Below are positions 2,486 through 53,718 of a DNA stretch of 64,000 bases, piece by piece. The first letter of the stretch is position 1. Each line of letters opens with the position of its first letter. The notes under the pieces are model-generated. The model was not told where the DNA came from and searched no databases. It was given only the letters and a program-made list of their open reading frames with translations. Source of the DNA: an uncultured Acidobacteriota bacterium (GTDB lineage: Bacteria > Acidobacteriota > Vicinamibacteria > Vicinamibacterales > CAVVIG01); assembly GCA_963792785.1 (NCBI GenBank), contig CAWBXO010000004.1, forward strand, positions 578,278 through 642,277, in the 5' to 3' direction. A program made the translations under genes and the position numbers.

Positions 2486-3580
2486 GTGAAACGCATCGTT
2501 ATTGCACTCGTGGTAGTCGTAGGCGGCGTCGGCCTGTACGCCCAGGGCCGCGGCGGCCGTGGACTCAGCCCGGAGCGCCAGGCGGCCATGCAGCGGCAGG
2601 CCGATCTCGAGAAGGCCGCACCGGACATTCCATTCGACGTCGTCCCGCTCAACCTGAAGACCCCGGACGACCGGATGATCGGCGAGACCGAGGGCGTGGC
2701 CATCAGCCCGGCGGGTCACATCTTCGTGTACACGCGCACCGGCACCTGGGGCGGCCCGGCCCGCGGCGCGATCGCGTCGCGCGTGTATGAGTTCAACAAG
2801 GACGGCAGCTGGGTCAAGGAGTGGGGCCAGGGCAACTACGGCTTCTCCTTCGCGCACGACATCAAGTTCGACAAGTACGGCAACCTGTGGGCCGTCGACG
2901 AAGGGTCGAACATGGTCATGAAGTTCAACGCGCAGGGCCAGGTCACGATGGTGCTCGGGCGCAAGGCCGAGGCGATCGATTACCTCGAGCGCTTCCTCGA
3001 GGAAGGCAACCATCCGCCGGAGGACGCGCCGCCACCGGTGGGCGGGCCCAACAGCTTCAACCGCCCGACCGACGTCACGTGGGACAACAACGACAACATC
3101 TTCGTGTCCGACGGCTACGGCAACTCGCGCGTGGCGAAGTTCAACAAAGACGGCGACTGGGTGAAGGCCGTCGGCACGCGCGGCAGCGGTCCGGACCAGT
3201 TCAACACGCCGCACACGATCGCCTCCGACGCGCAGGGGAACATCTACGTCGGCGACCGCGGCAACAACCGCATCCAGGTCTACGACCCCGACCTCAAGTT
3301 CCTGCGCTCGATCGACAACGTGCGGGCGCCGTGGGCGATCTGCATCACGCCGGGCCCGGGCACGCAGTACATCTACAGCGCCGACGCCGGCGGCATGATC
3401 TACAAGGACACGCTGGACGGGAAGCTGCTGGGCAAGTTCGGCACGATCGGCAAGCGCCCCGGGCAGTTCTACTGGGTCCACGCGATGGCGTGCCCGTCGG
3501 AGAACGAGATCTACACGGGTGAAGCCCAGAACTGGCGCGTCCAGCACCTGATGCTGCACCCGCCGGCGAACGCGAGGTAA
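2486..3580 (+). CDS. Secreted NHL-repeat six-bladed beta-propeller protein (peptidylglycine amidating-lyase-like)
   Basis: Intact 364-aa ORF with an N-terminal signal-like hydrophobic segment. Repeated NHL-like motifs are present (PTDVTWDNNDNIFVSDGYGNSRVAKFNKDG, PHTIASDAQGNIYVGDRGNNRIQVYD). Confidence 0.8.
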   Translation: MKRIVIALVVVVGGVGLYAQGRGGRGLSPERQAAMQRQADLEKAAPDIPFDVVPLNLKTPDDRMIGETEGVAISPAGHIFVYTRTGTWGGPARGAIASRVYEFNKDGSWVKEWGQGNYGFSFAHDIKFDKYGNLWAVDEGSNMVMKFNAQGQVTMVLGRKAEAIDYLERFLEEGNHPPEDAPPPVGGPNSFNRPTDVTWDNNDNIFVSDGYGNSRVAKFNKDGDWVKAVGTRGSGPDQFNTPHTIASDAQGNIYVGDRGNNRIQVYDPDLKFLRSIDNVRAPWAICITPGPGTQYIYSADAGGMIYKDTLDGKLLGKFGTIGKRPGQFYWVHAMACPSENEIYTGEAQNWRVQHLMLHPPANAR

Positions 3581-3590
3581 GAAGGAATCT

Positions 3591-3745
3591 GTAGCCGTTA
3601 GCTGTTAGCTGTTAGCTGTTAGCTGTTAGCTGTTAGCTGTTAGCTGTTAGCTGTTAGCTGTTAGCAATTCGCTAATGGCTAACGGCTAATGGCTAATGGC
3701 TATCGGCTATCGGCTATCGGCTATCGGCTATCGGCTAGCGGCTAC
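3591..3745. repeat. Long imperfect palindrome built from heptamer arrays: (GTTAGCT)x~10, then (GCTAATG/GCTAACG)x4, (GCTATCG)x5 and GCTAGCG
   Basis: Read directly. The outer ends gtagccgttagc and gctagcggctac are complementary. It sits between convergent genes, and its right end contains the TAG stop (3742-3744, minus strand). Confidence 0.9.
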
Positions 3746-4116
3746 TTCTTCGCACTCATCCGCCACGCCATCAGCCCGGCGAAGACGGCGATGCCCGCCA
3801 GCAGCTGGCGTTCGGTCGTTGGATCGAGGGGACTCTCGAAGTCCCGCACGTCGAGCCGGAACTTCGTCCAGGCGGACGAGTCGTACGTGTCCCAGTAATA
3901 CGTCAGCTGAGAATCGTGTGTCTCGACGGCGAAGCCGTCGTCTCCCATGCCCATCGGCAGTTCGGGCGGCATCCGGGGCAGATGCTGCTGCGGATCCACC
4001 AGCCACGCCGCCGCCTTCAGACCAAGGCTTTTCCCCTCGGCGGGCGGCCACGCGAGCACGACCAGAACGGCCGCGACCCAGATGACCCACCAGGCGCCGC
4101 GGCTCGGCTGCCACAT
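3742..4116 (-). CDS. Hypothetical small membrane protein
   Basis: 124-aa ORF with hydrophobic N- and C-terminal segments (WWVIWVAAVLVVLAW; LLAGIAVFAGLMAW) and non-shadow-like composition. I recognise no family. Confidence 0.5.
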   Translation of the reverse strand: MWQPSRGAWWVIWVAAVLVVLAWPPAEGKSLGLKAAAWLVDPQQHLPRMPPELPMGMGDDGFAVETHDSQLTYYWDTYDSSAWTKFRLDVRDFESPLDPTTERQLLAGIAVFAGLMAWRMSAKK

Positions 4117-4130
4117 GGGGGAATTATACG

Positions 4131-4167
4131 TTCCTCAGCTCCCCAGTTCCTCAGCTCCTCAGCTCCG
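4131..4167. repeat. Octamer array of the CTCCTCAG family (TTCCTCAG CTCCCCAG TTCCTCAG CTCCTCAG CTCCG)
   Basis: Read directly. Unit 4155-4162 contains the stop codon (TCA complement, 4159-4161) of the HD-domain gene. Confidence 0.9.
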
Positions 4168-4749
4168 TATGATCCCCGCCTCGCAGAAGCCATCGATGAT
4201 CCCCACGACCGTCGGCCACACCTCGGGCATCGCCGACTCGATCGGCCGCATGCGCTCGATCACCTGCCCCCGCGTCAACGCGTGGGTCTTCCAGCTGCCG
4301 CCGTCGGCGTGCGCATTGATCAGGAACGGCTGAAAGCGGTCCATGGCGTTCGCGAATCGCGCGGCGGCGGTCTCCCGCGCCTCGAACTCGTCCCACAACT
4401 CGCGAAACCGCACCGCCTGGTCGGGTGGGAGTAGACCGAACAGCCGGTCGGCGGCGGCCTGCTCGCGGTCCGCCTTCGTCTTCTGCCCCTCCAGGTCGTA
4501 GGCGAACGTGTCGCCCGCGTCGATCTCGACCAGGTCGTGGACGACCAGCAACTCGAACGCGCGCCACAGATCGAAGTGGTCGGCGGCGTGCTCGCGCATC
4601 ACCATCGCGGCGAGCAGGAGGTGCCAGGAATGCTCGGCGGAGTTCTCGAACCGGGAGCCGTTCACGAGCGGCGTGCGCCGCAGGACGGTTTTCAGCTTGT
4701 CGGCTTCGACGAGAAAGGCAATCTGGCGGGTGAGGCGATCGTCAGGCAC
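4159..4749 (-). CDS. HD-domain phosphohydrolase (YfbR-like 5'-deoxynucleotidase family)
   Basis: Intact 196-aa ORF with HD-superfamily motifs: NSAEHSWHLLL ... LVVHDLVEIDAGDTF. Confidence 0.75.
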   Translation of the reverse strand: MPDDRLTRQIAFLVEADKLKTVLRRTPLVNGSRFENSAEHSWHLLLAAMVMREHAADHFDLWRAFELLVVHDLVEIDAGDTFAYDLEGQKTKADREQAAADRLFGLLPPDQAVRFRELWDEFEARETAAARFANAMDRFQPFLINAHADGGSWKTHALTRGQVIERMRPIESAMPEVWPTVVGIIDGFCEAGIIRS

Positions 4750-4781
4750 GAAGAATTATAGGCCGCGGCCCACGGCGGACC

Positions 4782-4904
4782 TCAGTCGTCGTCCTTGTCG
4801 CGACGGCTCCAGCGGCGTTTCCATTCACGCTGGCGCCACCACCTCGAGGTGAGGTCGTAGACGAACACGCCGACGATCAGAACGGCGATGAACGCGATGG
4901 CCAA
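4782..4904 (-). CDS. Possible 40-aa single-pass membrane peptide (TTG start)
   Basis: My own minus-strand translation: (M)AIAFIAVLIVGVFVYDLTSRWWRQREWKRRWSRRDKDDD, stop at 4782-4784. It is below the ORF-track cutoff, and hydrophobic helix plus basic tail is the only support. Confidence 0.25.
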   Translation of the reverse strand: MAIAFIAVLIVGVFVYDLTSRWWRQREWKRRWSRRDKDDD

Positions 4905-4948
4905 CTTTGGGAACTTTATATGACTCTAAAAGTCACAGTCAACCACGA

Positions 4949-6251: not shown

Positions 6252-6292
6252 CACCACCACCCAGCACCCAGCACCCAGCACCTAGCACCCTA
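6252..6292. repeat. Heptamer array CCAGCAC x3 plus CTAGCAC, preceded by CAC triplets
   Basis: Read directly. It fills the gap between the aminotransferase start (6247) and the VOC-gene stop (6290-6292). It is the reverse complement of the GTGCTGG family at 51551-51590. Confidence 0.9.
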
Positions 6293-7354
6293 CTTACATA
6301 TCTCGCCGAGGAACCCGCCGCCGCCGCAGTACGTCACGTCCTGGAGCTGCATCAGCAGGCCGTCCGGGTCCGTGAAATACAGCTCGGGGGTGCCGCCGTC
6401 GGCGCCGCCGCGATTCGGCATGCGCAGACTGATGTATTTCTGCATCGGCCCGACAGGCCCGCGGCCGTCGGCGCGATCCTTGATGCCGAAGCGCTCGAGG
6501 TTCGCCATCACCTCGTCCGGCTTGAAGCCCACCATGTTCATGCAGGCGTGGTTGATGCTGGCCGGCCGCGGCGCCCCGCCGCCCCGCGCGGCCCCCGCGC
6601 CGCCGGTGAACATCAGGAACGCCACGCCGTTGCCCACACCGAGCGCCGGCGTCGCGGCCTGCATCGTCTGGATGTCGAGGCCGAACAGATCCTGGTAGAA
6701 CTTCGCCGACCGCTCACCATCCGAGACCGAAATGGTGAAGTGGCTCAGGTCGCGCAGCGCCATGAGCCCCTTCGACGGGGAGGGCTCGGGCGTGCCGCAG
6801 ACGTTGCCGAGCGTGCCGGCGCCGCCGCAGTACGTCGGATCCTGAAGCTGCACGACGATGCCGTCGGGGTCGCCGAAGTAAATCTCCGGCGTGCCGCCCG
6901 GCGCGCCGCCGTTCTCGGGCCCGCGCATCCGCACCCGCGCCTTCATCGGCGCGCTCGTGTCAGCGCGCTCGATGCCGTGATCGGCGAGCGTGCGCATCAC
7001 GCCGTCCACGCTGAAATTCTCGACGCTGACGCAGAAGTGGCCGATCCGCGGCGGGTTCGCGCCGGCGGCGCTGAGGGCGAGGAACTGCGGGCCGTCGCCC
7101 AGGCGGAGGACGATCGTGTCGCCCTGGCGCGCCGCGATCGGCAGGCCGAACAGACCCTGGTAGAACGCGAGGGAGCGCTTCACGTCCGACACGCTGAGCG
7201 TCATGTGGTTCAACGCGTGCGCGCGGAACTGGCTGCGGCCCTGCGCAAGCACCTTCGGCGCGAGCGCGAGCGCGGGGAGCGCGGCAAGCATGCCGCGACG
7301 CGAGATCCGACCGTCCTGGTAGCCCTGCATCAGCTTGTCGAGAGGAGCGTTCAT
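6290..7354 (-). CDS. Secreted tandem VOC-domain (glyoxalase / bleomycin-resistance / dioxygenase superfamily) protein
   Basis: Intact 354-aa ORF with a Tat-like N-terminus (RISRRGMLAALPALALA). Two internal repeats each end in TPE(I/L)YF(G/T)DPDG..(V/M)QLQD.TYCGG. Confidence 0.7.
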   Translation of the reverse strand: MNAPLDKLMQGYQDGRISRRGMLAALPALALAPKVLAQGRSQFRAHALNHMTLSVSDVKRSLAFYQGLFGLPIAARQGDTIVLRLGDGPQFLALSAAGANPPRIGHFCVSVENFSVDGVMRTLADHGIERADTSAPMKARVRMRGPENGGAPGGTPEIYFGDPDGIVVQLQDPTYCGGAGTLGNVCGTPEPSPSKGLMALRDLSHFTISVSDGERSAKFYQDLFGLDIQTMQAATPALGVGNGVAFLMFTGGAGAARGGGAPRPASINHACMNMVGFKPDEVMANLERFGIKDRADGRGPVGPMQKYISLRMPNRGGADGGTPELYFTDPDGLLMQLQDVTYCGGGGFLGEICK

Positions 7355-7413
7355 GGCCTCACAGTATAGCGCTGCGGAGCGCTCCGCTTCTTGCGTTAAG
7401 CTACGTATTCACG

Positions 7414-8376
7414 ATGCCCATCGCCCGCCGGACCGCGGCGACCGACGCTGGATGGACGCTGGTGCTGGCCGCCGCCCACGCCGCGGAGCGGATGGCGGAC
7501 GCCGGCCGTGCGGCCGCCTTCACCTTGGGCGATGACGACCAGTTACAGGTGGCCGCCGGCGGCGCGCCCGGCGCCGCCATCACGTGGCACCCTGACGCGG
7601 GCTGGAGGCCGGCCGTCTCCGCCGGCGATCCCTGTCGCCCGATCCTCGACCTCTACCTGCCGATTGCGAGCGCCACGCGGCGGCGGCCGATCACCGTGGC
7701 GCACCTCGGCCAAAGTCTCGACGGCTTCATCGCCACGCGCGCGGGCGAGTCGCAGTTCGTCACCGGCCAGGAGAACATCCTCCACCTGCACCGCCTCCGC
7801 GCCCTCTGCGGGGCCATCATCGTCGGCGCCGGCACGGTGGCGGCCGACGATCCCCAGCTGACGACGCGGCACGTGGACGGCCCCAACCCGCTGCGCGTGG
7901 TCTTCGACCCGGCGCGCCGGCTGGCCGACGGCTACCGCGTGTTCCAGGACGACGGCGTCGAGACGATCTACGCGTGCCGCCGGGCGCTCGTGCGGCCGGG
8001 CGAGACGCATCTCGGGCGCGCGGCGATCGTCCCGATCGACGATCGGTCGCCGGCGGCCGGCGCGCACGATCTGATGGCGCGGCTGCGCGCGCGCGGCTGC
8101 GCGCGCGTGTTCGTGGAGGGCGGCGGCGTGACCGTGTCGACGTTCCTCGAGGCCAACCTGCTCGATCGCCTGCACCTGGCGATCGCGCCGGTCCTCATCG
8201 GCGACGGCAAGCCCGCGATCCGCCTGACGCCGCGCGACTTCCTGCGCGACTGCCCCCGCCCGCGCTACCGCGTCTTCCGCATGGGCGGCGACGTCCTGTT
8301 CGACTGCGAGCTCGGCGCCATCGACCAGGGCGAACCCGACGACGGCGCCGACGACGGCATCAGCCGCATCATCTGA
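7414..8376 (+). CDS. RibD C-terminal-domain (dihydrofolate-reductase-like) reductase with an N-terminal ~95-aa extension
   Basis: Intact 320-aa ORF. ITVAHLGQSLDGFIATRAGESQFVTG...LHRLRALCGAIIVGAGTVAADDPQLT...VFVEGGGVTVSTFL is typical of the RibD_C fold. Confidence 0.7.
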   Translation: MPIARRTAATDAGWTLVLAAAHAAERMADAGRAAAFTLGDDDQLQVAAGGAPGAAITWHPDAGWRPAVSAGDPCRPILDLYLPIASATRRRPITVAHLGQSLDGFIATRAGESQFVTGQENILHLHRLRALCGAIIVGAGTVAADDPQLTTRHVDGPNPLRVVFDPARRLADGYRVFQDDGVETIYACRRALVRPGETHLGRAAIVPIDDRSPAAGAHDLMARLRARGCARVFVEGGGVTVSTFLEANLLDRLHLAIAPVLIGDGKPAIRLTPRDFLRDCPRPRYRVFRMGGDVLFDCELGAIDQGEPDDGADDGISRII

Positions 8377-9232
8377 TCGCTCGCACTGAGACCTGGAACT
8401 GAGGAACTCGAACTTCCGCGTTCTCCAGGCCGCCAGGTCCTCGTGGCCGACGACCAGCGCCGATCGCCCGCGCGTCGACGTGCGCGCGCCGGCGCTCGCG
8501 CCATGACTCGATCGCCGCGGCTTCGCCGGGGCGCATCTCCCCTGCAGCTCGTGCCCAGCCGTCGATCAGTTCCCGCTGCAAGTCCGCGTCGGCCGTGCCG
8601 AGGCGCCAGTCACTGGCGGCCCGCTCGACGCGATAGCCGCGTGCCGCGAACAGCTCACTCGCGCGGCGGGCGGCATCTGGGCCAAGCGCCGGGCCGAAGC
8701 CCTTGTCCGTCCGCTGATGCGCGTTCACGAGCGCGACGACGCCGTCGTCCATCGGATCCGCAGGGGTGCAGGCGATCCGGCCGTCGTAGCTGAGCGCGAA
8801 AAGCGCCGCGGCGCCGGCGGCCGCAATACGATCGACAAGATCGGCCAGCCACGCGTCCGAAACGAGATCCAGGAGCGCCGAGGCGGTGACGAGCGACGCG
8901 CCGGCGAGCACGCGTGCGTCATCCAGGCGGGCGAGATCGGCTTCGAGGCACTCGACGGCTGCCCCCGCGCCCGCGCCGTGCGCGCCGGCGGCTCGCGCGA
9001 GCAGCGCGGGATCGCGGTCGACCAGCCGCCAGCGCCAGGCGCCCGGGAGGCGCGGCGCCAGGAACCGCAGATTCGATCCGGTGCCGGCGCCGAGGTCGAC
9101 CGCCAGACGCTCGCCCTCCCCCGCCGTCGCGCCGCGGAGCGCGTCGATCGCGGCGCCGGTCACGGTCGCCGATCGCGCGGCCGCGTCCGCCGGCTCGCGA
9201 AGCGCCAGCCACTCCGCGCTAAAGCCGCTCAT
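8369..9232 (-). CDS. SAM-dependent methyltransferase
   Basis: Starts at MSGFSAEW (ATG 9232-9230), overlapping the upstream GT stop by 14 nt. SAM motif I is VDLGAGTGSNLRFL. The C-terminal ~30 aa are doubtful: an alternative frame near 8455-8470 reads GRSALVVGHEDLAAW, which looks more native and hints at local indels. Confidence 0.7.
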   Translation of the reverse strand: MSGFSAEWLALREPADAAARSATVTGAAIDALRGATAGEGERLAVDLGAGTGSNLRFLAPRLPGAWRWRLVDRDPALLARAAGAHGAGAGAAVECLEADLARLDDARVLAGASLVTASALLDLVSDAWLADLVDRIAAAGAAALFALSYDGRIACTPADPMDDGVVALVNAHQRTDKGFGPALGPDAARRASELFAARGYRVERAASDWRLGTADADLQRELIDGWARAAGEMRPGEAAAIESWRERRRAHVDARAIGAGRRPRGPGGLENAEVRVPQFQVSVRAIR

Positions 9233-21532: not shown

Positions 21533-22186
21533 ATGTTCGTTGGACATCTCGCCGTCGCACTCGCCGCCAAACGCCAGGCGCCGAAGCTGTCCCTGGGTTG
21601 GCTGTTCGCCGCGGTCACCCTGCTCGACCTGCTGTGGCCGATCTTCCTGCTCCTGGGCGTCGAGCAGGTCAGCCTCGCGCCGGGCACGCCGTTCACCCCA
21701 CTCGTGTTCACGTCGTATCCCTGGTCGCACAGCCTGTTGATGTCGATCGTCTGGGGCTTCGGCCTGCTCGGTCTGGCGCGCGCCCTCGGCCGGCCGGCCG
21801 GCGCCTGGTACCTCCTGCCGGCGCTCGTGGTCAGCCATTGGGTGCTCGACTTCATCAGCCATGCGCCCGACATGCCCCTCTGGCCGGGCGCGTCGCCCCA
21901 CCTCGGCCTGGGCCTCTGGTACTCGATTCCGGGCACGCTCATCGTCGAGGGCGGGATGTGGGTGGCCGGCCTCGCGATCTACCTGCGCGGCCGGCGGGCG
22001 ACGAGCTGGGTCGGGCCGGCGGCGCTGTGGTCGCTGGTCGCCGTCACCACGCTGCTGTGGGCGGCGAGCCCGTGGACGCCGGCGCCGCCCAGCGTCTCAG
22101 CGCTGGCGTGGTACGGGCTGATCGGCGGGTGGATCACCCTGCCCTGGGCGGCGCTGGCGGACAAGCACTACCAACTGAGGAGCTGA
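21533..22186 (+). CDS. Polytopic membrane protein, possibly a YdjM/DUF457-like membrane-bound metal-dependent hydrolase
   Basis: Intact 217-aa ORF with ~6 hydrophobic segments and conserved His/Asp (SHWVLDFISHAPD). The family assignment is tentative. Confidence 0.45.
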   Translation: MFVGHLAVALAAKRQAPKLSLGWLFAAVTLLDLLWPIFLLLGVEQVSLAPGTPFTPLVFTSYPWSHSLLMSIVWGFGLLGLARALGRPAGAWYLLPALVVSHWVLDFISHAPDMPLWPGASPHLGLGLWYSIPGTLIVEGGMWVAGLAIYLRGRRATSWVGPAALWSLVAVTTLLWAASPWTPAPPSVSALAWYGLIGGWITLPWAALADKHYQLRS

Positions 22187-22207
22187 AGAGCTGGGGAACT
22201 GAGGAAG
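22175..22207. repeat. Octamer array CTGAGGAG CTGAAGAG CTGGGGAA CTGAGGAA
   Basis: Read directly. The second unit contains the TGA stop (22184-22186) of the preceding membrane-protein gene. Confidence 0.9.
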
Positions 22208-22386
22208 TAGTCGCGCGCTACGAAAGGGTATCGGTTGCCATCTGGTCCTACATTTCTGATCGACAGCCGTGAAGCCATCCTGGCGGTGGCGAATCACCGG
22301 ATCGCAGATTCACTCGGGATTTCGGTGGATCTTCAAGGCTTGGGCGGGTGGCCGAACGTGGACCGGTTCTTGCTCCGTGAATCGGT

Positions 22387-22581
22387 ATGGAATTCGAACT
22401 ACTGACCCGGCGGATTCGCAACGAGTTCAACGAGATGCCTGGCCTGCGGCTGACGCTCCAGCAGGCCCAGCGGCTGTGGGGTCTCGAGCGCGACATGTGC
22501 CGCGCCGTGATCGATCGGCTCGTCGAGTCGTCGTTCCTCCGGTGGACCGCGACGGGCACGGTCATCCGGTTAGAGAACTGA
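22387..22581 (+). CDS. Small hypothetical protein (64 aa)
   Basis: The composition looks non-shadow and protein-like (MEFELLTRRIRNEFNEMPGLRLTLQQAQRLWGLERDMCRAVIDRLVESSFLRW). Its stop lies in the first unit of the downstream repeat hairpin. I recognise no family. Confidence 0.45.
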   Translation: MEFELLTRRIRNEFNEMPGLRLTLQQAQRLWGLERDMCRAVIDRLVESSFLRWTATGTVIRLEN

Positions 22582-22639
22582 GGAACTGAGGAGCTGAGGA
22601 AGCGTGGTTCCGCAGCTCCCCAGCTCCTCAGCTCCTCAC
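22578..22639. terminator. Repeat-built hairpin between convergent genes: (CTGAGGAR)x3, loop, (CAGCTCCY)x3
   Basis: Read directly. The arms contain the stops of both flanking genes (TGA 22579-22581 plus strand; TCA 22636-22638 for lpdA). There is no U-tract. The three arm mismatches are A/C on the plus strand, which become G-U pairs in the minus-strand transcript. Confidence 0.6.
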
Positions 22640-24051
22640 TTTCTTCGTGGCTTATACACGTGCGTGGCCTGGCCGAAGAACATCTCGGCCGCCTCACCCA
22701 TGGTCTCCGACAGCGTCGGGTGCGTATGGATTGAAAGGGTCAGGTCCTTCGCGTTCGCGCCCATTTCCACGGCCAGCACGCCTTCCGCGATCAGCTCTCC
22801 CGCCGACACGCCCACGATTCCCACTCCCAGGATCCGCCCCGTCTTCGGCTCGACGATGAGCTTGGTGAGGCCGTCGGCGCGGTCGAGCGTCAGCGCGCGG
22901 CCCGACGCGCCCCAGACGAACTTCACCACCTCGAAGGCCAGCCCCTTCGCCTGAGCCTCCTGCTCGGTCACGCCGCACCAGGCCAGTTCCGGGTCGGTGA
23001 ACACCACGGCGGGAATCGCGCGCGGCTCGAACGCGGCCTTCTCCCCGGCGATCGCCTCGGCCGCCACACGCCCCTCGGCCATGGCCTTGTGCGCGAGCAT
23101 CGGCTCGCCGGCCACGTCGCCGATGGCGAAGATCGTCGGCTCCGCCGTCCGGCGCTGCACGTCGACCTCGATGAAGCCCTTCGCGTTCACGACGACCTTC
23201 GTCCGATCGAGCCCGGGGACGTTCGAGTTCGGGCGCCGCCCGATCGACACGAGCACCGCGTCGAACACCTGCTCGGGCTCCTTCACGTCCGGGCCCTCGA
23301 ACGTCACGCGCACGCCGCCGGCCTCCTCGGCCATCTTCACGACCTTCGTGTTGAGCATCACGGCCTTCGTGATCGTGGCGACGCGCTTCGCCAGGATGTT
23401 CACGAGGTCGCGATCCGCGCCGGGCAGGAGGCCGCCGGTCATCTCCACGACCGACACCTCGCTGCCGAGGGCCGCGTAGACGGTGCCGAGCTCGAGGCCG
23501 ATGTAGCCGCCGCCCACCACGAGGAGGGTCTTCGGGATCCGCTTCAACTCGAGCGCCGAGGTCGAGTCGAGCACGCGCTCGCTCTGGAGCGCGAGCGACG
23601 GGATCACGGTCGGCCGGGACCCGGTCGCGATGATGATGAAATCGGCCGTGACCTCTTCGACGCCGCCGCCCACCTTCTCGACGCGCAGCGTCGTCGGGCC
23701 GGCGATCTCGGCGCGGCCCTGGATGTAGTGGACCTTGCGCATCTTCCCGATTTGGCCGTTCCCGCTCGTCAGCTTCGTGACGATCTCATTCTTCCAGGCG
23801 CGGAGGCGGTCGAGGTCGAGCGTGGGCGCGCCAAAGCCCACGCCCCACGCGGAGGCGTGCTTCGACTCCTCGATGAGCTTGGCGACATGCAGGAGCGCCT
23901 TGGACGGGATGCAGCCGCGGTACGTGCACACGCCGCCCGGGTTCACCTCCGGGTCGATCATCGTGACGGTCTTGCCCAGATCCGCGGCGAGATAGGCCGC
24001 GGCGTATCCGCCGGGCCCCGCGCCGATCACTGCTACTTGTGTCGATGGCAT
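22636..24051 (-). CDS. lpdA: Dihydrolipoyl dehydrogenase (E3)
   Basis: Intact 471-aa ORF with GAGPGGY FAD motif, redox-active GGVCTYRGCIPSK and the C-terminal interface HTHPTLSE. Confidence 0.95.
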   Translation of the reverse strand: MPSTQVAVIGAGPGGYAAAYLAADLGKTVTMIDPEVNPGGVCTYRGCIPSKALLHVAKLIEESKHASAWGVGFGAPTLDLDRLRAWKNEIVTKLTSGNGQIGKMRKVHYIQGRAEIAGPTTLRVEKVGGGVEEVTADFIIIATGSRPTVIPSLALQSERVLDSTSALELKRIPKTLLVVGGGYIGLELGTVYAALGSEVSVVEMTGGLLPGADRDLVNILAKRVATITKAVMLNTKVVKMAEEAGGVRVTFEGPDVKEPEQVFDAVLVSIGRRPNSNVPGLDRTKVVVNAKGFIEVDVQRRTAEPTIFAIGDVAGEPMLAHKAMAEGRVAAEAIAGEKAAFEPRAIPAVVFTDPELAWCGVTEQEAQAKGLAFEVVKFVWGASGRALTLDRADGLTKLIVEPKTGRILGVGIVGVSAGELIAEGVLAVEMGANAKDLTLSIHTHPTLSETMGEAAEMFFGQATHVYKPRRK

Positions 24052-24073
24052 GCGTGTCTCAAGACAAATGCGG

Positions 24074-24129
24074 CCACGAAGGCACGAAGGCCCGAAGAAG
24101 AATCCTTCGTGACCTTCGTGCCTTCGTGG
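24074..24129. repeat. Hairpin with a 17-bp perfect stem made of CACGAAGG octamers (CCACGAAGGCACGAAGG ... CCTTCGTGCCTTCGTGG)
   Basis: Read directly. It lies in the 91-nt aceF-lpdA gap. Confidence 0.85.
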
Positions 24130-24142
24130 TTGCGTTGTTAAA

Positions 24143-28175: not shown

Positions 28176-28250
28176 GACTGCGCGTTCCTTTCGCTCTCGG
28201 GGCTGCGTTAACCTCCTATTTTAACCTTCACGGTAAGGAAACGGGAAGCC

Positions 28251-30276
28251 ATGCGCCGACACCTGATGGCCTTCATTTTCGTCGCTTTGCCGTTGGCGGC
28301 CGTCATGGCGGCCGCGCAGTCGGCGACGGCGCCCGCGCCATCCGCGTCCGGGCTCGACCTCGCGGCCATCGACCGCGGCGCCAGTCCGTGCACCGACTTC
28401 TACGCGTTCGCCTGCGGCGCCTGGTCCCGGGCGAACCCCGTGCCGGCGGACCGCCAGCGCTGGGGGCGCTTCGACGAGCTGCAGGATCGGAACTTCACGT
28501 TTCTGCGCCGCATCCTCGAGACGCCGGGCGGCCAGGGCGATGAGCGCAAGGCCCGCGACTACTACGCCGCGTGCCTCGATACGGCCGCCATCGAACGCGG
28601 CGGCCTGTCGCCGCTCGAACCGCAGCTGCAGCGCATCGCCGCGCTCGCCGGCCTCGACGGTCTGCCGGCGCTCCTGGCCGGCCTGCACACCATCGGCGTG
28701 AACGCGCTCTTCCGGTTCCGCGCGGACACCGACGCGCACGACGCGACGCGCGAGATCGCCGACGTCGACCAGGGCGGGCTCGGCCTGCCCAACCGCGACT
28801 ACTACACGAAGACCGACGCGCCCTCGGTCGCCCTGCGCGCGAAGTACGTCGCGCACCTCGAGCGGATGCTGGGGCTGCTCGGCGACGCGCCGGCGCGCGC
28901 CGCCGCCGGTGCGCAGGCGATCATGGCGTTCGAGACCGCCCTCGCCGAGGCATCCGAGGCCCCGGTCGAAAGACGCAATCCGGCCACGACGGATCACCCG
29001 ATGACGGTCGACCAGCTCCAGGCGCTCACGCCCGGCTTCGACTGGAGCGGGTACCGCGCCGCGGGCGGCGCGCCGGCGTTCTCATCCCTCAACGTGGACG
29101 CCCCCGACTTCCTGAAGGCGATGGACGCCCTCCTCGCCGCGACCCCGGTCGCCACCCTCCAGACCTACCTGCGCTGGCGCCTGGTCGCCGCCTCGGCCAC
29201 CATGCTGCCCGCGGTGTTCGACGAGGCCAACTTCGATTTTTACGGCCGGACGCTCGCCGGCCAGAAGGCGCAGCTGCCGCGCTGGCGCCGCTGCGTGTCG
29301 GCGACCGACGCCGCCGTGGGCGAGGCCCTCGGCCAGGCGTTCGTCGCCGAGGCCTTCGGTCCGCAGTCGAAGGCCGACATGCTCGGCATGGTGCAGGACA
29401 TCAAAGGCTCCATGGCGAACGACATCGCGAGCGCCGACTGGATGAGCGCCGAGACGAAGCAGGCCGCGAAGGCCAAGCTGGATGCCGTCGTCGACCGCAT
29501 CGGCTACCCGGACACGTGGCGGCGCTACGACTCGATGACCGTCGGCGCGGCGACCGCGCTCGCGAACCGGCAGCAGGCCAACGCGTTCGACTGGCGGCGC
29601 GAGATGGCGAAGATCGACAAGCCCGTGGACCGCGGCGAGTGGTCGATGACGCCGCCGACCGTGAACGCCTACTACAGCCCCGATCGCAACAACATCAACT
29701 TCCCCGCCGGCATCCTGCAGCCGCCCTTCTATCAGGGCGAGCGCGACCCGGCCGTGAACTACGGGGCGGCCGGCGCGGTCGTCGGCCACGAGCTGACGCA
29801 CGGCTTCGACGACCAGGGGCGGAAGTACGACCCCGAGGGCAACCTGCGCGACTGGTGGACCGCCGCCGACGGCGCGAAATTCGAGGAGCGCGCCAGCTGC
29901 ATCGCGAACGAGTACCGAAGGCTTTCAGGTGGACGCCGACACGCACCTGAACGGCCGGCTCACGCTCGGCGAGAACACGGCGGACAACGGCGGCGTGCGC
30001 CTCGCGTTCCTCGCGTACCTCGCCGGGCCCGGCGCCAACGCCCCCGCGAATCTCGACGGCTTCACGCCCCAGCAGCGCTTCTTCCTCGGCTACGCCCAGA
30101 TCTGGTGCGAGAACCGGACGCCGGAGTACGACCGGATGCAGGCGCTCACCGACCCGCATTCGCCCGGACGCTTTCGCGTGAACGGCGTCGTCTCGAACAT
30201 GCCGGAATTCCAGCGGGCGTTCGCGTGCCGCGCCGACGCGCCCATGGTGCGGCAGAACGCATGCCGCGTCTGGTAG
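28251..30276 (+). pseudogene. M13-family zinc metallopeptidase (PepO / endothelin-converting-enzyme-like) with a single frameshift near 29912-29925
   Basis: Has a signal peptide and HExxH (VVGHELTHGFD). After CIANEY the frame is lost, and the true continuation (E)GFQVDADTHLNGRLTLGENTADNGG...MPEFQRAFACR is ORF 29929..30276. The track fuses the wrong-frame read-through with the next gene. Confidence 0.8.
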
Positions 30277-30971
30277 CGCAGGCGCTGCTGAACGCGCAGC
30301 AGGCGATCGTCGCCTGCGAGCGGTGCCCGCGCCTGCGCGCCTACGGCGCGCGGGTCGCGCGCGAGAAGCGGCGCGCCTATCGCGACGACGTGTACTGGGG
30401 CCGGCCCGTGCCCGGGTTCGGCGACCCGCGCGCCCGCCTCCTCATCGTCGGGCTCGCCCCCGCGGCGCACGGCGCCAACCGCACCGGCCGCGTCTTCACC
30501 GGCGACGGCGCGGGCGGATCGAGCGGGTTCCTCATGGCCTCGCTGCACCGCACGGGCTTCGCCAACCAGCCCACGTCCGAGCGCGCCGACGACGGCCTGC
30601 GGCTGCGGGACGCGTTCATCGCGATGGCCGTACGGTGCGCGCCGCCCGACAACAAGCCGACACCCCGCGAAATCGCCAACTGCCGCATCCACTTCGACGC
30701 CGAGTTCGACGCACTGCCGCGCGTCGGCGTCGTCGCCGCGCTCGGCAAGGTCGCGTTCGACGCCACGCTGCACCTGCTCGCCCGGCACGGCACGACGTTC
30801 GCGCGCCGCCCCGCCTTCGGCCACGGCGCCCGCGTGGAACTGCCTGACGGCCGCGTGCTGCTCGGGTGCTACCACCCGAGCCGCCAGAACACGCAGACCG
30901 GCAAGCTCACGAAGGGGATGATCGATGACGTCTTCGCGCTCGCGCGGGACGTCATCGAGACGAGGTTCTAA
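30261..30971 (+). CDS. Uracil-DNA glycosylase, family 4/5 (motif A reads GLAPAAHG, so family-5 UdgB-like)
   Basis: ATG 30261 overlaps the M13 stop. Supporting sequence: CERCPRLRAY, LLIVGLAPAAHGANRTGRVFTGD, GCYHPSRQNTQTG. Confidence 0.8.
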   Translation: MPRLVAQALLNAQQAIVACERCPRLRAYGARVAREKRRAYRDDVYWGRPVPGFGDPRARLLIVGLAPAAHGANRTGRVFTGDGAGGSSGFLMASLHRTGFANQPTSERADDGLRLRDAFIAMAVRCAPPDNKPTPREIANCRIHFDAEFDALPRVGVVAALGKVAFDATLHLLARHGTTFARRPAFGHGARVELPDGRVLLGCYHPSRQNTQTGKLTKGMIDDVFALARDVIETRF

Positions 30972-31178
30972 AGGTTCCAAAGGTTCTGGGGGTTCTGAAG
31001 GTCGGGTTCTCGGTTCCAGGGGTTCAGAGGTTCTAAGGGTGCTGGCGGCGCGGACGCCGCGTAGTCGGAACCACTGAACCCTCGAACCCTCGTACCTTGG
31101 AACCCGACCCCCAGAACCTCCAGAACCCCTGGAACCTTTAGAACCGCTGCTTCCAGTAGAACCGCTGCATCCAGGAAC
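30963..31178. repeat. ~200-bp palindromic element, copy A: GGTTC-periodic arms around the core GGGTGCTGGCGGCGCGGACGCCGCGTAGTCGGAACC, plus TAGAACCGCTGCWTCCAG x2
   Basis: Read directly. The left arm starts inside the last UDG codons (stop 30969-30971). It aligns with copy B at 31934-32125 in the same orientation. Confidence 0.85.
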
Positions 31179-31220
31179 TCCCTGTGCCGCGCGGTGTCCA
31201 ACTGAGTACGGGAGGCTCCG

Positions 31221-31931
31221 ATGCTCACACGCACCCTCGTGGCGGCGTCGTTTGCCGGACATCTGATCGTGCTCACCGTGATCGGCGTCGTGCAGGCTCT
31301 CGCGATGGGGCCGCTGCCGCAGCCGCGCCATCCCCTCGATCCCTTCGTCGTTCACCTGGTGCGGCTCGGCGACATCGAACTGCCGCCGATGCCGCGCGCG
31401 GAGGCGCGGCCGCCGGGCAGGGCGGACGCATCGAGCGCGCCCGTGGTGCGGACGGCCTCGCCGACCGTGGCGGCGCCCCTCGAACCGCAGACGGGCATCC
31501 GGCCTGAGACGGATCTCGATCGCGCGTTCGGCGCGCGCGGCATCGGCGGCGGCGAGCCCGCGATCCGATCGCTCGGCAGTCTCGGCCAGTCGCTCGGCGG
31601 CCCCGTGGCGCTGCCGGAGGCGCCGCCACGCCCGGCCGGACCGGTGCGGCTGCATCAGGGCATCGCGCCGCCCGTTCCGATCTCGATGCCGACGCCGATT
31701 TACCCGGCGATCGCCCGCACGGCGCGCGTCGACGGCATCGTGATCCTCGACGTCGTCATCGACGAGACGGGGCGCGTGACCGGCGCGAAGGTGCTGCGAT
31801 CGATTCCCTTGCTGGACAAGGCGGCCATCGACGCGATCACGTCGTGGCGCTACGAACCGGCCAGGCTGAACGGGATCCCGATCGCGATTTCGATGACGGT
31901 GACCGTACGCTTCACGTTGAACGGTCGGTGA
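31221..31931 (+). CDS. TonB-family energy-transducer protein
   Basis: Intact 236-aa ORF with an N-terminal TM segment, a Pro-rich spacer and a TonB C-terminal domain (YPAIARTARVDGIVILDVVIDETGRVTGAKVLRS...WRYEPARLNG). Confidence 0.8.
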   Translation: MLTRTLVAASFAGHLIVLTVIGVVQALAMGPLPQPRHPLDPFVVHLVRLGDIELPPMPRAEARPPGRADASSAPVVRTASPTVAAPLEPQTGIRPETDLDRAFGARGIGGGEPAIRSLGSLGQSLGGPVALPEAPPRPAGPVRLHQGIAPPVPISMPTPIYPAIARTARVDGIVILDVVIDETGRVTGAKVLRSIPLLDKAAIDAITSWRYEPARLNGIPIAISMTVTVRFTLNGR

Positions 31932-31933
31932 AG

Positions 31934-32125
31934 CGCAGCGGTTCTGGAGGTTCCAGGGGTTCCGGGGGTTCTGGAGGTCGGGTTCTGGGTTCTAGAGGTT
32001 CAGAGGTTCTACGGGTGCTTGCGGCGCGGACGCCGCGTAGTCGGAACCGCTGAACCCTCGAACCTGTCGAACCCAGAACCCGACCTCCAGAACCCCCAGA
32101 ACCCCTGGAACCCCTAGAACCTCTT
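31934..32125. repeat. ~200-bp palindromic element, copy B (core GGGTGCTTGCGGCGCGGACGCCGCGTAGTCGGAACC)
   Basis: Read directly. It begins 3 nt after the tonB stop and contains the stop and the last ~40 codons of the convergent glycerophosphodiesterase ORF. Confidence 0.85.
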
Positions 32126-32903
32126 CGACAGTTGGGACGATCACGTCCGGCCGATCCGTGATGAGCGCGTCGACGCCCCACGACAGCAGGCGGCGCGCGT
32201 CGGCCTCGGTGTCGACGGTCCAGACCTGCACGGCGAGCCCCGCGCGATGCATGGCGGCCACGAAGCGCGGCGAGACGACGCGCGTCCGGCCCGCGCGCTC
32301 CGGCACCTGGAAGCCGCCGTACGCCGGCCGCGACGGCGTCAGACCGATCCACGACCGGTAGAGCGCCCATCGCACTTCCTCACGCCAGGCGCTCGTCGCG
32401 ATCGCCGGCTCGATCGCGCGCGCCGCCGGCAGGGCGCGCGCCGCAAACGCGCCGAGGCACACGCGGTCCACCGCGTCCGCGGCGCGCACGACGTCGACGA
32501 CGGCGCGCGCGAGGGCTGCGGTGTCGGCCTTGAGCTCGATGATGACGCGCACGCCGGTGAACCGCGCCAGCACGTCGGCGAGCCGCGGCACGCCGATGCC
32601 CTGCCCCCGAAAGGGGAACCCGCCGTCCCGCGCGAAGCGATAGCCGGCGTCGGCCGCGGCCAGCTCGTCCGCGGTGCGCGCCGCGATCGGGCCGCTGAGG
32701 TCGGTGGTGCGTTCCAGCGTCGGGTCGTGATGCACGACGACGACGCCGTCGCGCGACAGGTGCACGTCCAGCTCGAGCCCATCGGCACCGACCGCCAGGC
32801 CGCGCTCGAACGCGGGCATCGTGTTCTCGGGGGACAGGCCGCTTCCGCCGCGGTGCGCGAAGACGAGCGGCCCCACGGCGTCGAAAAAGGCGGCGCGGGA
32901 CAC
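31992..32903 (-). CDS. Glycerophosphodiester phosphodiesterase (UgpQ/GlpQ family)
   Basis: Real part of long ORF 31992..33923, with GTG start at 32903-32901 (VSRAAFFDAVGPLVFAHRGG). Motifs are HRGG..PENT and ELDVHLSRDGVVVVHHD. The C-terminal tail is encoded by repeat copy B. Confidence 0.8.
   Translation of the reverse strand: MSRAAFFDAVGPLVFAHRGGSGLSPENTMPAFERGLAVGADGLELDVHLSRDGVVVVHHDPTLERTTDLSGPIAARTADELAAADAGYRFARDGGFPFRGQGIGVPRLADVLARFTGVRVIIELKADTAALARAVVDVVRAADAVDRVCLGAFAARALPAARAIEPAIATSAWREEVRWALYRSWIGLTPSRPAYGGFQVPERAGRTRVVSPRFVAAMHRAGLAVQVWTVDTEADARRLLSWGVDALITDRPDVIVPTVEEVLGVPGVLGVLEVGFWVRQVRGFSGSDYAASAPQAPVEPLNL

Positions 32904-51136: not shown

Positions 51137-53718
<2,582 letters not shown>

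Follow-up and report, generated by a model that had tools for sequence, protein, structure and literature searches.

Cyanobacterial short tandemly repeated repetitive (STRR) heptamers are analogous to the elements described here, which are tandem arrays of the octamer CTGAGGAR (YTCCTCAG on the other strand) at gene ends in a 64-kb stretch of an uncultured member of the Acidobacteriota (order Vicinamibacterales; assembly GCA_963792785.1, contig CAWBXO010000004.1, positions 578,278 to 642,277). The whole stretch is referred to as the window, and positions are counted from its first letter. Repeats with units of 5–11 nt are described as long simple sequence repeats (LSSRs), and slippage was proposed by Mrazek (2007) for the abundance of heptamer LSSRs (as summarised in PMC4679880). 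Forward repeats with stop codons in all frames are necessarily located at the ends of open reading frames (ORFs) (PMC4679880). [quoted passage not shown] Their length and sequence differ between close relatives at one site, and inverted pairs can form stem-loops (PMC4692102). Repetitive extragenic palindromes (REPs) are located at 3' gene ends and between convergent genes, where they have been hypothesised to stabilise mRNA and to take part in termination (PMC3733652).

No paper in the searchable literature contained the two-unit sequence of the octamer. From sequence comparisons we conclude, with moderate confidence, that the arrays are probably octanucleotide microsatellites of the LSSR class, grown in place by replication slippage from a proto-repeat that spanned the stop codon.

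Octamer arrays at four gene ends

Direct reading of the window (70% G+C) confirmed four tandem (CTGAGGAR)3–4 arrays, which a sequence-only reading had placed at 4131, 22175 and 22578–22639. The octamer occurred 12 times in the window compared with 2.66 expected occurrences, and 0 of 100 shuffles reached 12. The two-unit pattern (≤3 mismatches) also occurred 12 times (1.06 expected; reached by no shuffle). With 3–4 units per array and Tandem Repeats Finder (TRF) scores of 40–56, the arrays show at least three head-to-tail copies of a 5–11-nt unit beyond chance, as in LSSRs. Isolated octamers at 8399, 12962 and 41116 were within chance expectation. The first of these had been read as a degenerate copy at ~8398. 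It is in fact a perfect single CTGAGGAA (8399–8406, plus strand), located 23 nt past the stop of gene 7198–8376, and represents chance or a proto-unit but no array.

GC3, the G+C content at third codon positions, separates the genes of the window cleanly. The four ORFs that end in arrays had GC3 values of 0.85–0.92 and were supported by Pfam or by orthologues. As the sequence-only reading had stated, the TGA of each adjacent gene lies inside a repeat unit. The stop always falls in unit 1 or 2, and the array is in the TGA-bearing orientation with respect to the gene in 4/4 cases.

The array at 4131–4162 (minus strand; sense units CTGAGGAG CTGAGGAA CTGGGGAG CTGAGGAA) lies between the stop of an HD_3/YfbR-like hydrolase gene (4159–4749, minus strand; hereafter the HD gene) and the start of the next gene. 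The TGA at 4159–4161 is in the first unit. The coding octamer ahead of the array (ATACGGAG, 4163–4170) is the native end of the HD gene (Ile-Arg-Ser), and the C-terminus ...GIIRS* is ancestral. The array at 22175–22206 (plus strand; sense units CTGAGGAG CTGAAGAG CTGGGGAA CTGAGGAA) has neither an inverted partner nor a significant fold. It lies at the end of the gene of a YdjM-like membrane protein (21533–22186, plus strand). The TGA of this gene (22184–22186) is in unit 2, so that the array encodes the three C-terminal residues, LRS.

The remaining two arrays face each other between convergent genes. The left arm (22578–22601, plus strand) has three sense units, CTGAGGAA CTGAGGAG CTGAGGAA, and unit 1 contains the TGA (22579–22581) of a conserved 64-aa gene (22387–22581, plus strand). 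The loop GCGTGG (22602–22607) lies between the left and the right arm. The right arm (22608–22639, minus strand) has four units, which read GTGAGGAG CTGAGGAG CTGGGGAG CTGCGGAA in the sense of lpdA (dihydrolipoyl dehydrogenase; 22636–24051, minus strand). The lpdA stop (22636–22638) is in the first unit, GTGAGGAG, and the C-terminus KPRRK* is ancestral.

The TGA was retained in 11 of the 15 array units and lost in four, i.e. it is not conserved in later units. Position 4 of the unit (the A of TGA) was the most variable of the constrained positions. A designed stop cassette is unlikely because of this decay of the TGA.

Other classes of element were considered and rejected. A CRISPR does not agree with the 8-nt period and the lack of spacers, and a coding repeat does not agree with the stops in all frames of the sense strand. 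A Shine-Dalgarno function for the downstream gene was rejected, as a co-oriented start is nearby in just one case out of four, at a spacing of ~15 nt.

Gene ends in related genomes

Three syntenic relatives were compared at the HD gene: L119 (90% identity), L121 (80%) and L120 (77%). The gene end reads CGG TCC TGA CCC in L120 (0 units), ATA CGG AAC TGA GGAA followed by CGTATAAT in L119 (1.5 units) and ATA CGG AAC TGA GGAACTGGG...TATAAT in L121 (2 units). In the window it reads ATA CGG AGC TGA GGAGCTGA GGAACTGG GGAGCTGA GGAA, again followed by CGTATAAT (4.5 units). The flanks in the window are the same as those of the relatives, and the three extra units are all whole and in-register. Neither a target-site duplication nor foreign sequence was found when the window was compared with the empty site. 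The native GG AAC TGA is one full unit in a rotated register, and together with GGAA it amounts to 1.5 units. Because the site differs by whole in-register units only, with no target duplication, it points to slippage in situ and not to insertion. The suggestion that an element inserts at stop codons was thus not borne out.

For the lpdA junction, syntenic relatives were found through LpdA homologues: L116, L117 (LpdA 85% identical) and L118 (92%). All three contain lpdA and the convergent 64-aa gene, with the two stops 3–7 nt apart and an array-free junction. The junction of L118 reads ...TAC AAG CCG AGG AGG AAG TGA GGTTC TCA GTT CTC GAG..., with the stops 5 nt apart. Both C-termini (KPRRK* and VIRLEN*) and both TGAs are identical to those of the window. 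Between the stops, the window has ~49 bases more than L118, corresponding to two arms and a loop. A metagenome scan with a degenerate pattern of the lpdA 3' end returned four loci (L125–L128) and no intermediate copy numbers. The lpdA ends of L125–L127 had no array. In L128, the lpdA TAA lies inside the first unit of another inverted 7-mer array, (ACGTAAA)3...(TTTCCGT)3, which, judging by its sequence, would be an independent re-invention with a different unit.

HD homologues end in ...IR[SN] and LpdA homologues in ...KP[RK]R[KRG], i.e. these tails are family-wide. Where homologues had names, these pointed to Vicinamibacterales or Acidobacteria. The best homologue of the YdjM-like gene was 73% identical and non-syntenic, and the tail of this family is variable after a conserved ADxxY. 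No array was found at the gene ends of the YdjM-like homologues L123 and L124.

Stops and C-termini are therefore older than the arrays, because relatives share the ends and the TGA with no array or with only 1.5–2 units. According to the sequence-only reading, the stop codons are provided by the unit, and array-free orthologues with identical C-termini would be evidence to the contrary. Such gene ends were found: L118, L119 and L121 have the same ends and TGA without an array or with 1.5–2 units. This speaks against the provision of stops by the unit and leaves intact the claim that arrays arise exactly at stops, since the array starts at the native stop in each comparable site.

The 4131–4162 array sits where the –35 element of the next gene, encoding 124 aa (3742–4116, minus strand), would be expected. 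A TATAAT box is kept 7–11 nt upstream of the ATG of this gene (window 4116–4127, minus strand; L119 1469–1486; L121 3592–3620). The conserved TATAAT so near the ATG suggests a leaderless transcript or one with a very short leader. On the other side of the HD gene, the 200-nt spacer (4750–4948, minus strand) to an aminotransferase gene contains a small ORF with the translated motif ...RWWRQREWKRRW..., which ends just before the HD start. It is also kept in L120 (2834–3000) and L121 (2903–3000), and its conserved sequence makes an unannotated small membrane protein likely.

RNA folding of inverted pairs

The inverted arrays at 22578–22639 form a hairpin, as had been proposed. For 22565–22650, the predicted folding energy was –46.4 kcal/mol for the plus strand RNA (z –5.6) and –53.6 kcal/mol for the minus strand RNA (z –7.5). 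This G+C-rich stem-loop is of the kind seen in intrinsic terminators. The single arrays at 4131 and 22175 had no such stem-loop and no significant structure (z –2.2 and +0.3, respectively). Hence, the idea of a stop-proximal RNA structure is supported for the inverted pair and not for the single arrays. Three arm mismatches had been described as A/C on the plus strand and G-U on the minus strand. This was correct for two of them; the third is A·G on the plus strand and U·C on the minus strand. The fold of the lpdA strand is the stronger one, as predicted, but the argument for it comes down to two transitions, i.e. two of the three mismatches.

A run of T 3' of the stem was weak by eye after the plus strand stem (TTTCTTCG) and absent on the lpdA strand. 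The inverted pair thus has the stem-loop of a canonical intrinsic terminator but not its T run. The consensus scan found no promoter at the arrays. Rfam 15 gave 0 matches at the gathering score over the whole window. GGA recurs every 8 nt in the arrays, but no predicted structure places GGA in loops, as would be expected of an RNA that titrates CsrA/RsmA.

Two further inverted pairs with other units were found. In the spacer between the E2 gene and lpdA, (CACGAAGG)3/(CCTTCGTG)3 arrays (24075–24128) form a hairpin with predicted folds of –50 and –53.6 kcal/mol (24060–24140). L118 has a hairpin in the same place (370–476), in which both arms have changed together, from the 8-mers CACGAAGG to the 9-mers CACGAAGAT. 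In L116 and L117, only CCTTCGTGG remnants were found in this spacer. CACGAAGG/CCTTCGTG arrays were also present in an unrelated locus (L082). The second pair, (TAGCTGT)10 at 3592–3665 facing (GCTAATG/GCTATCG)10 at 3671–3744, lies between an NHL-repeat gene and the convergent 124-aa gene, whose TAG (3742–3744, minus strand) is in the end unit. A hairpin of ~75 bp (3575–3750) was predicted here, with –116.1 kcal/mol for the plus strand RNA vs –70.6 for the minus strand RNA. The gap of 45 kcal/mol between the strands is due to G·U pairs. As the arms pair via G·U, they are not exact DNA complements. The predicted fold suggests an RNA-level structure in the 3' untranslated region (3' UTR) of the NHL gene. 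In L121, this site contains no more than a short quasi-palindrome.

Judging by these models, the inverted pairs are compatible with a structure at the 3' end of the RNA, such as a terminator that needs no U-tract, a barrier to exonucleases or a site for RNase III. A homogenisation of the arms by template switching would be compatible with them as well, and the independent substitutions in the arms are too few to prove selection.

Distribution in other genomes

A set of species-representative genomes was scanned for (CTGAGGAR)3. The CTGAGGAR pattern alone was counted, so the result gives no ranking against other octamers. The pattern was found in at least 115 stretches, and the matches listed, to which all statements on these stretches refer, included none from the genome of the window. 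Hosts included Mesorhizobium, Streptomyces, Saprospiraceae and Lewinella, Flavobacteriales, Segatella copri, cyanobacteria and Paenibacillus, as well as metagenome-assembled genomes of Vicinamibacterales and other Acidobacteriota. A scan of IMG/VR for the array pattern gave one match.

In loci with a G+C content of at least 0.60, the TGA of unit 1, 2 or 3 was the stop of a long GC3-rich ORF in 29 of ~57 arrays, in agreement with an origin of arrays at stops. Five more arrays started 3–8 nt past a stop, and 11 were located 21–209 nt downstream. Some of the loci are orthologous, and the counts thus include events that are not independent. Most arrays of low-GC Bacteroidota and cyanobacteria were away from gene ends. 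Mesorhizobium species have a common orthologous site with 5–12 units and an inverted (TTCTTCAG)n arm, where G·U pairs favour the sense transcript. Copy number therefore varies between relatives at one site, as is typical of LSSRs, both here (5–12) and at the HD-gene end (0/1.5/2/4.5). About 130 further arrays of other 7–10-nt units were found in the same 8-kb stretches, meaning that genomes that host the array are array-rich in general.

Other arrays and repeats in the window

TRF identified ~12 further strong 7–9-nt arrays with other units in the 64 kb. All of them were located in spacers, and each starts inside, directly after or at most ~13 nt from the stop of a co-oriented gene. None of these other arrays was located between divergent genes. 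Strong arrays of period 7 or 8 overlap ORFs by the last 0–3 codons only, as expected for non-coding LSSRs with a unit length that is not a multiple of 3. Weak GC-rich TRF matches seem to fall in coding sequence.

The arrays include a ACCAAATT array at 2365–2415. A (TRGGTGC)5 array (6254–6292, minus strand; TRF unit CCAGCAC at 6254–6290) fills its spacer, and the TAG of a glyoxalase-family gene (6290–6292) heads the first unit. No array was found in this spacer in the relatives compared. An (ACCCAGC)5 array (51553–51590, minus strand; TRF unit GGTGCTG, the complement of CCAGCAC) abuts the TGA of gene 51591–51950 (minus strand) and fills the spacer to the next ATG. In three more cases, the stop is supplied by the first unit of an unrelated array: TAG at 3742–3744 (minus strand), TAG at 6290–6292 (minus strand) and TAA at 30969–30971 (plus strand). 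Comparison with the relatives of the HD region shows that the arrays at 6254–6290 and 3592–3744 are lineage-specific, too, and have taken the place of small hairpins or short spacers of unrelated sequence. The compared stretches of L116, L119 and L120 contained no strong array of period 7 or 8, and those of L117 and L121 contained one each. In L117, (AGAGCCC)8.9 (8427–8488) fills the spacer from the called end of ureB (8428) to the start of ureC (8489); it is stop-anchored and has an unrelated unit.

9-mer palindromes of GGTTCTNNA/GAACCNNN were located at 30960–31175 and 31936–32125. They belong to two ~200-nt palindromic elements (30955–31185 and 31925–32135), which are 85% identical, have the same orientation and fold to –135 kcal/mol. 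The 9-mers form the arms, around a G+C-rich centre, GGCGGCGCGGACGCCGCGTAGTC. The copies flank a TonB_C gene (31206–31931), and the first unit of the first copy contains the TAA (30969–30971, plus strand) of the upstream ORF. This ORF (28212–30971, plus strand; 919 aa from stop to stop) has the N- and C-terminal domains of Peptidase_M13, followed by a domain of the uracil-DNA-glycosylase superfamily. Either this is an unusual fusion, or the ORF call has joined two genes.

Origin of the arrays

If the arrays grew in place, the last codon A[A/G]C, the TGA and the following GGA[A/G] would form a proto-repeat, GGARCTGA-GGAR, to which slippage would then add units. Growth towards the gene would be limited by selection on the ORF. 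As 8 is not divisible by 3, a TGA-containing unit of this period closes every reading frame within 24 nt, and at most a few tail residues would therefore be changed. These all-frame stops may act as a filter, such that only units of this kind could sit on an ORF end. The arrays would presumably be transcribed as 3' UTR. Two sense arrays that meet at a convergent junction are necessarily inverted copies of each other. The RNA hairpin at such a junction probably acts as a 3'-end structure, be it a terminator without a U-tract, a barrier to 3'-exonucleases or a site for RNase III, and template switching and/or selection may maintain the pairing of its arms. Arrays without an inverted partner are probably near-neutral by-products.

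Several observations weigh against this origin. Three of the four arrays (4131–4162, 22175–22206 and 22608–22639) have exactly four units, with CTGGGGAR as unit 3. This hints at copying between loci, or at a coincidence of ~1 in 16 given one variant per array. Among the 22 TGA stops of the window, the context TGA GGA is confined to array-bearing genes. Independent seeding would need an unexplained sequence preference, because the same unit is found at four ends in 64 kb and TGA GGA is otherwise uncommon. At the lpdA junction, the insert contains a loop (CCACGC on the lpdA strand) that cannot be derived from L118, and this site is less clean than the HD site. Arrays on both genes of one convergent pair are also unlikely as two independent events. 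Moreover, the same octamer array is present in many phyla, and the consensus scan found no T-tract terminator at any array, the hairpin included. Part of this evidence would be explained if a dispersed module of ~32 nt (four units) or a preformed hairpin was copied by transposition, ectopic gene conversion or microhomology-mediated template switching, with a preference for stops of the type ...A[AG]C TGA GG.... We consider such copying possible but unlikely. The common length and variant and the single unit at four ends agree with it, as do the two arms at the lpdA junction, which appeared together and with a novel loop relative to L118, and the palindromic 9-mer element with two 85%-identical copies shows that a true dispersed repeat is present nearby. 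It does not agree with the HD site, where whole in-register units were added within a pre-existing proto-repeat of 1.5–2 units and neither a target duplication nor a terminal sequence is present. The CTGG variant at this site was inherited vertically, since L121 already has CTGG at the orthologous site, and CTGGGG variants are common in the arrays of other genomes. Copying would also not lead one to expect that the copy number of orthologous arrays in Mesorhizobium varies freely or that the L128 hairpin is made from a locally different unit.

Selection for a translation-linked 3' UTR RNA is a still weaker candidate. TGA together with a Shine-Dalgarno-like GAGG/GGAG or a CsrA-type GGA would retain or recycle ribosomes at termination, provide a backup stop in every frame or titrate a regulator that binds GGA. 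Every unit has GAGGA and TGA according to this argument, and the array is sense to the upstream gene in 4/4 cases. The same or nearly the same unit, NTGARGAA, forms arrays in Acidobacteriota, Mesorhizobium, Streptomyces, Bacteroidota and cyanobacteria, and a comparable proposal exists for TAACTGA repeats (PMC4679880). However, the TGA is lost in 4/15 units, with its A as the most variable constrained position, and close relatives with identical gene ends have no arrays. Arrays in low-GC Bacteroidota and cyanobacteria are mostly not at gene ends, and sister arrays in the window use units with neither GGA nor a stop (ACCCAGC and ACCAAATT). Only one of the four arrays is near a downstream co-oriented start, from which GAGGAA is ~15 nt away, and there was no Rfam match. 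It is similarly doubtful that NTGARGAA/CTGAGGAR arrays are cross-phylum stop-anchored 3' UTR elements, convergent or horizontally spread, whose recurrence in the same unit reflects function and not mutational accident. Such elements might, for example, engage the anti-Shine-Dalgarno end of terminating ribosomes, titrate a GGA-binding protein or pair with an inverted partner to form RNase III or terminator hairpins. Chance similarity or an assembly artefact can practically be dismissed. The single octamers at 8399, 12962 and 41116 are indeed within expectation, but the arrays are not, as the shuffle controls (0/100 reached the observed counts) and the orthologous loci show. The arrays are well inside a 1.5-Mb contig, the same arrays are found in isolate genomes of Mesorhizobium and Streptomyces, and array-derived features are kept at orthologous sites.

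Comparison with known repeats

Growth in place would make the HD-gene end a clean natural case of the birth of an intergenic repeat family in bacteria, with a proto-repeat of 1.5 units, made up of the last codon, the stop and a few bases, that then expands. The literature on TAACTGA and other heptamers has left open whether identical units result from horizontal spread or from independent origin, and the orthologues described here favour an independent origin in situ. For annotation, this means that a microsatellite can encode the last residues of some proteins (e.g. LRS of the YdjM-like protein), which may differ according to its copy number. In high-GC Acidobacteria and rhizobia, tandem units can build 3' hairpins of very high stability without a U-tract, and these will escape terminator predictors. 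If the hairpins are functional terminators or processing sites, culturable Mesorhizobium with the same arrays is a ready test system.

The inverted arrays resemble REPs and bacterial interspersed mosaic elements (BIMEs) in that they are stable extragenic hairpins at 3' gene ends and between convergent genes. REPs and BIMEs have a fixed palindrome of 20–40 nt, whereas the arms here consist of tandem short units with no GTAG/CGTC head at the base of the stem. The window arrays showed no sign of mobility of the type of REP-associated tyrosine transposases (RAYTs). The HD-gene end also differs from a miniature inverted-repeat transposable element (MITE) or another insertion element, as the filled site departs from the empty one only by in-register units inside a proto-repeat that was already there, and no duplication is present.

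The unit is an octamer and has only ACTGA in common with TAACTGA, which places it outside the STRR, TAACTGA and GGGNATC heptamer families. The GGGNATC/GGGGAYT heptamers of Xanthomonas and Nostoc (Rehm et al. 2015, PMC4692102) are enriched between co-oriented ORFs and rare between divergent ones. They contain G-tracts and form G-quadruplexes, whereas CTGAGGAR has another unit length and no G-tracts of three or more, except in CTGGGGAR variants. The TAACTGA heptamers of Beggiatoaceae, cyanobacteria and Bacteroidetes (MacGregor 2015, PMC4679880) share the ACTGA core with the CTGAGGAR arrays. As here, they have stops in all three forward frames and none in reverse, overlap ORFs only at their ends (13 reported) and occur as an identical unit in unrelated phyla (PMC4679880). 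Their unit is 7 nt and not 8 nt long, and the sets in Maribeggiatoa are mostly located just upstream of starts, whereas the arrays described here are at or after stops (PMC4679880). Horizontal spread was favoured for TAACTGA (PMC4679880), whereas the orthologue evidence here favours growth in situ.

The window arrays are most similar to LSSRs as far as these are summarised in PMC4679880: head-to-tail units of 7–9 nt, an intergenic location, many unit families per genome, a sporadic phylogenetic spread, variable copy number and slippage as the proposed origin. They differ in the octamer unit CTGAGGAR and in the orthologue pairs, which show anchoring on the native stop.

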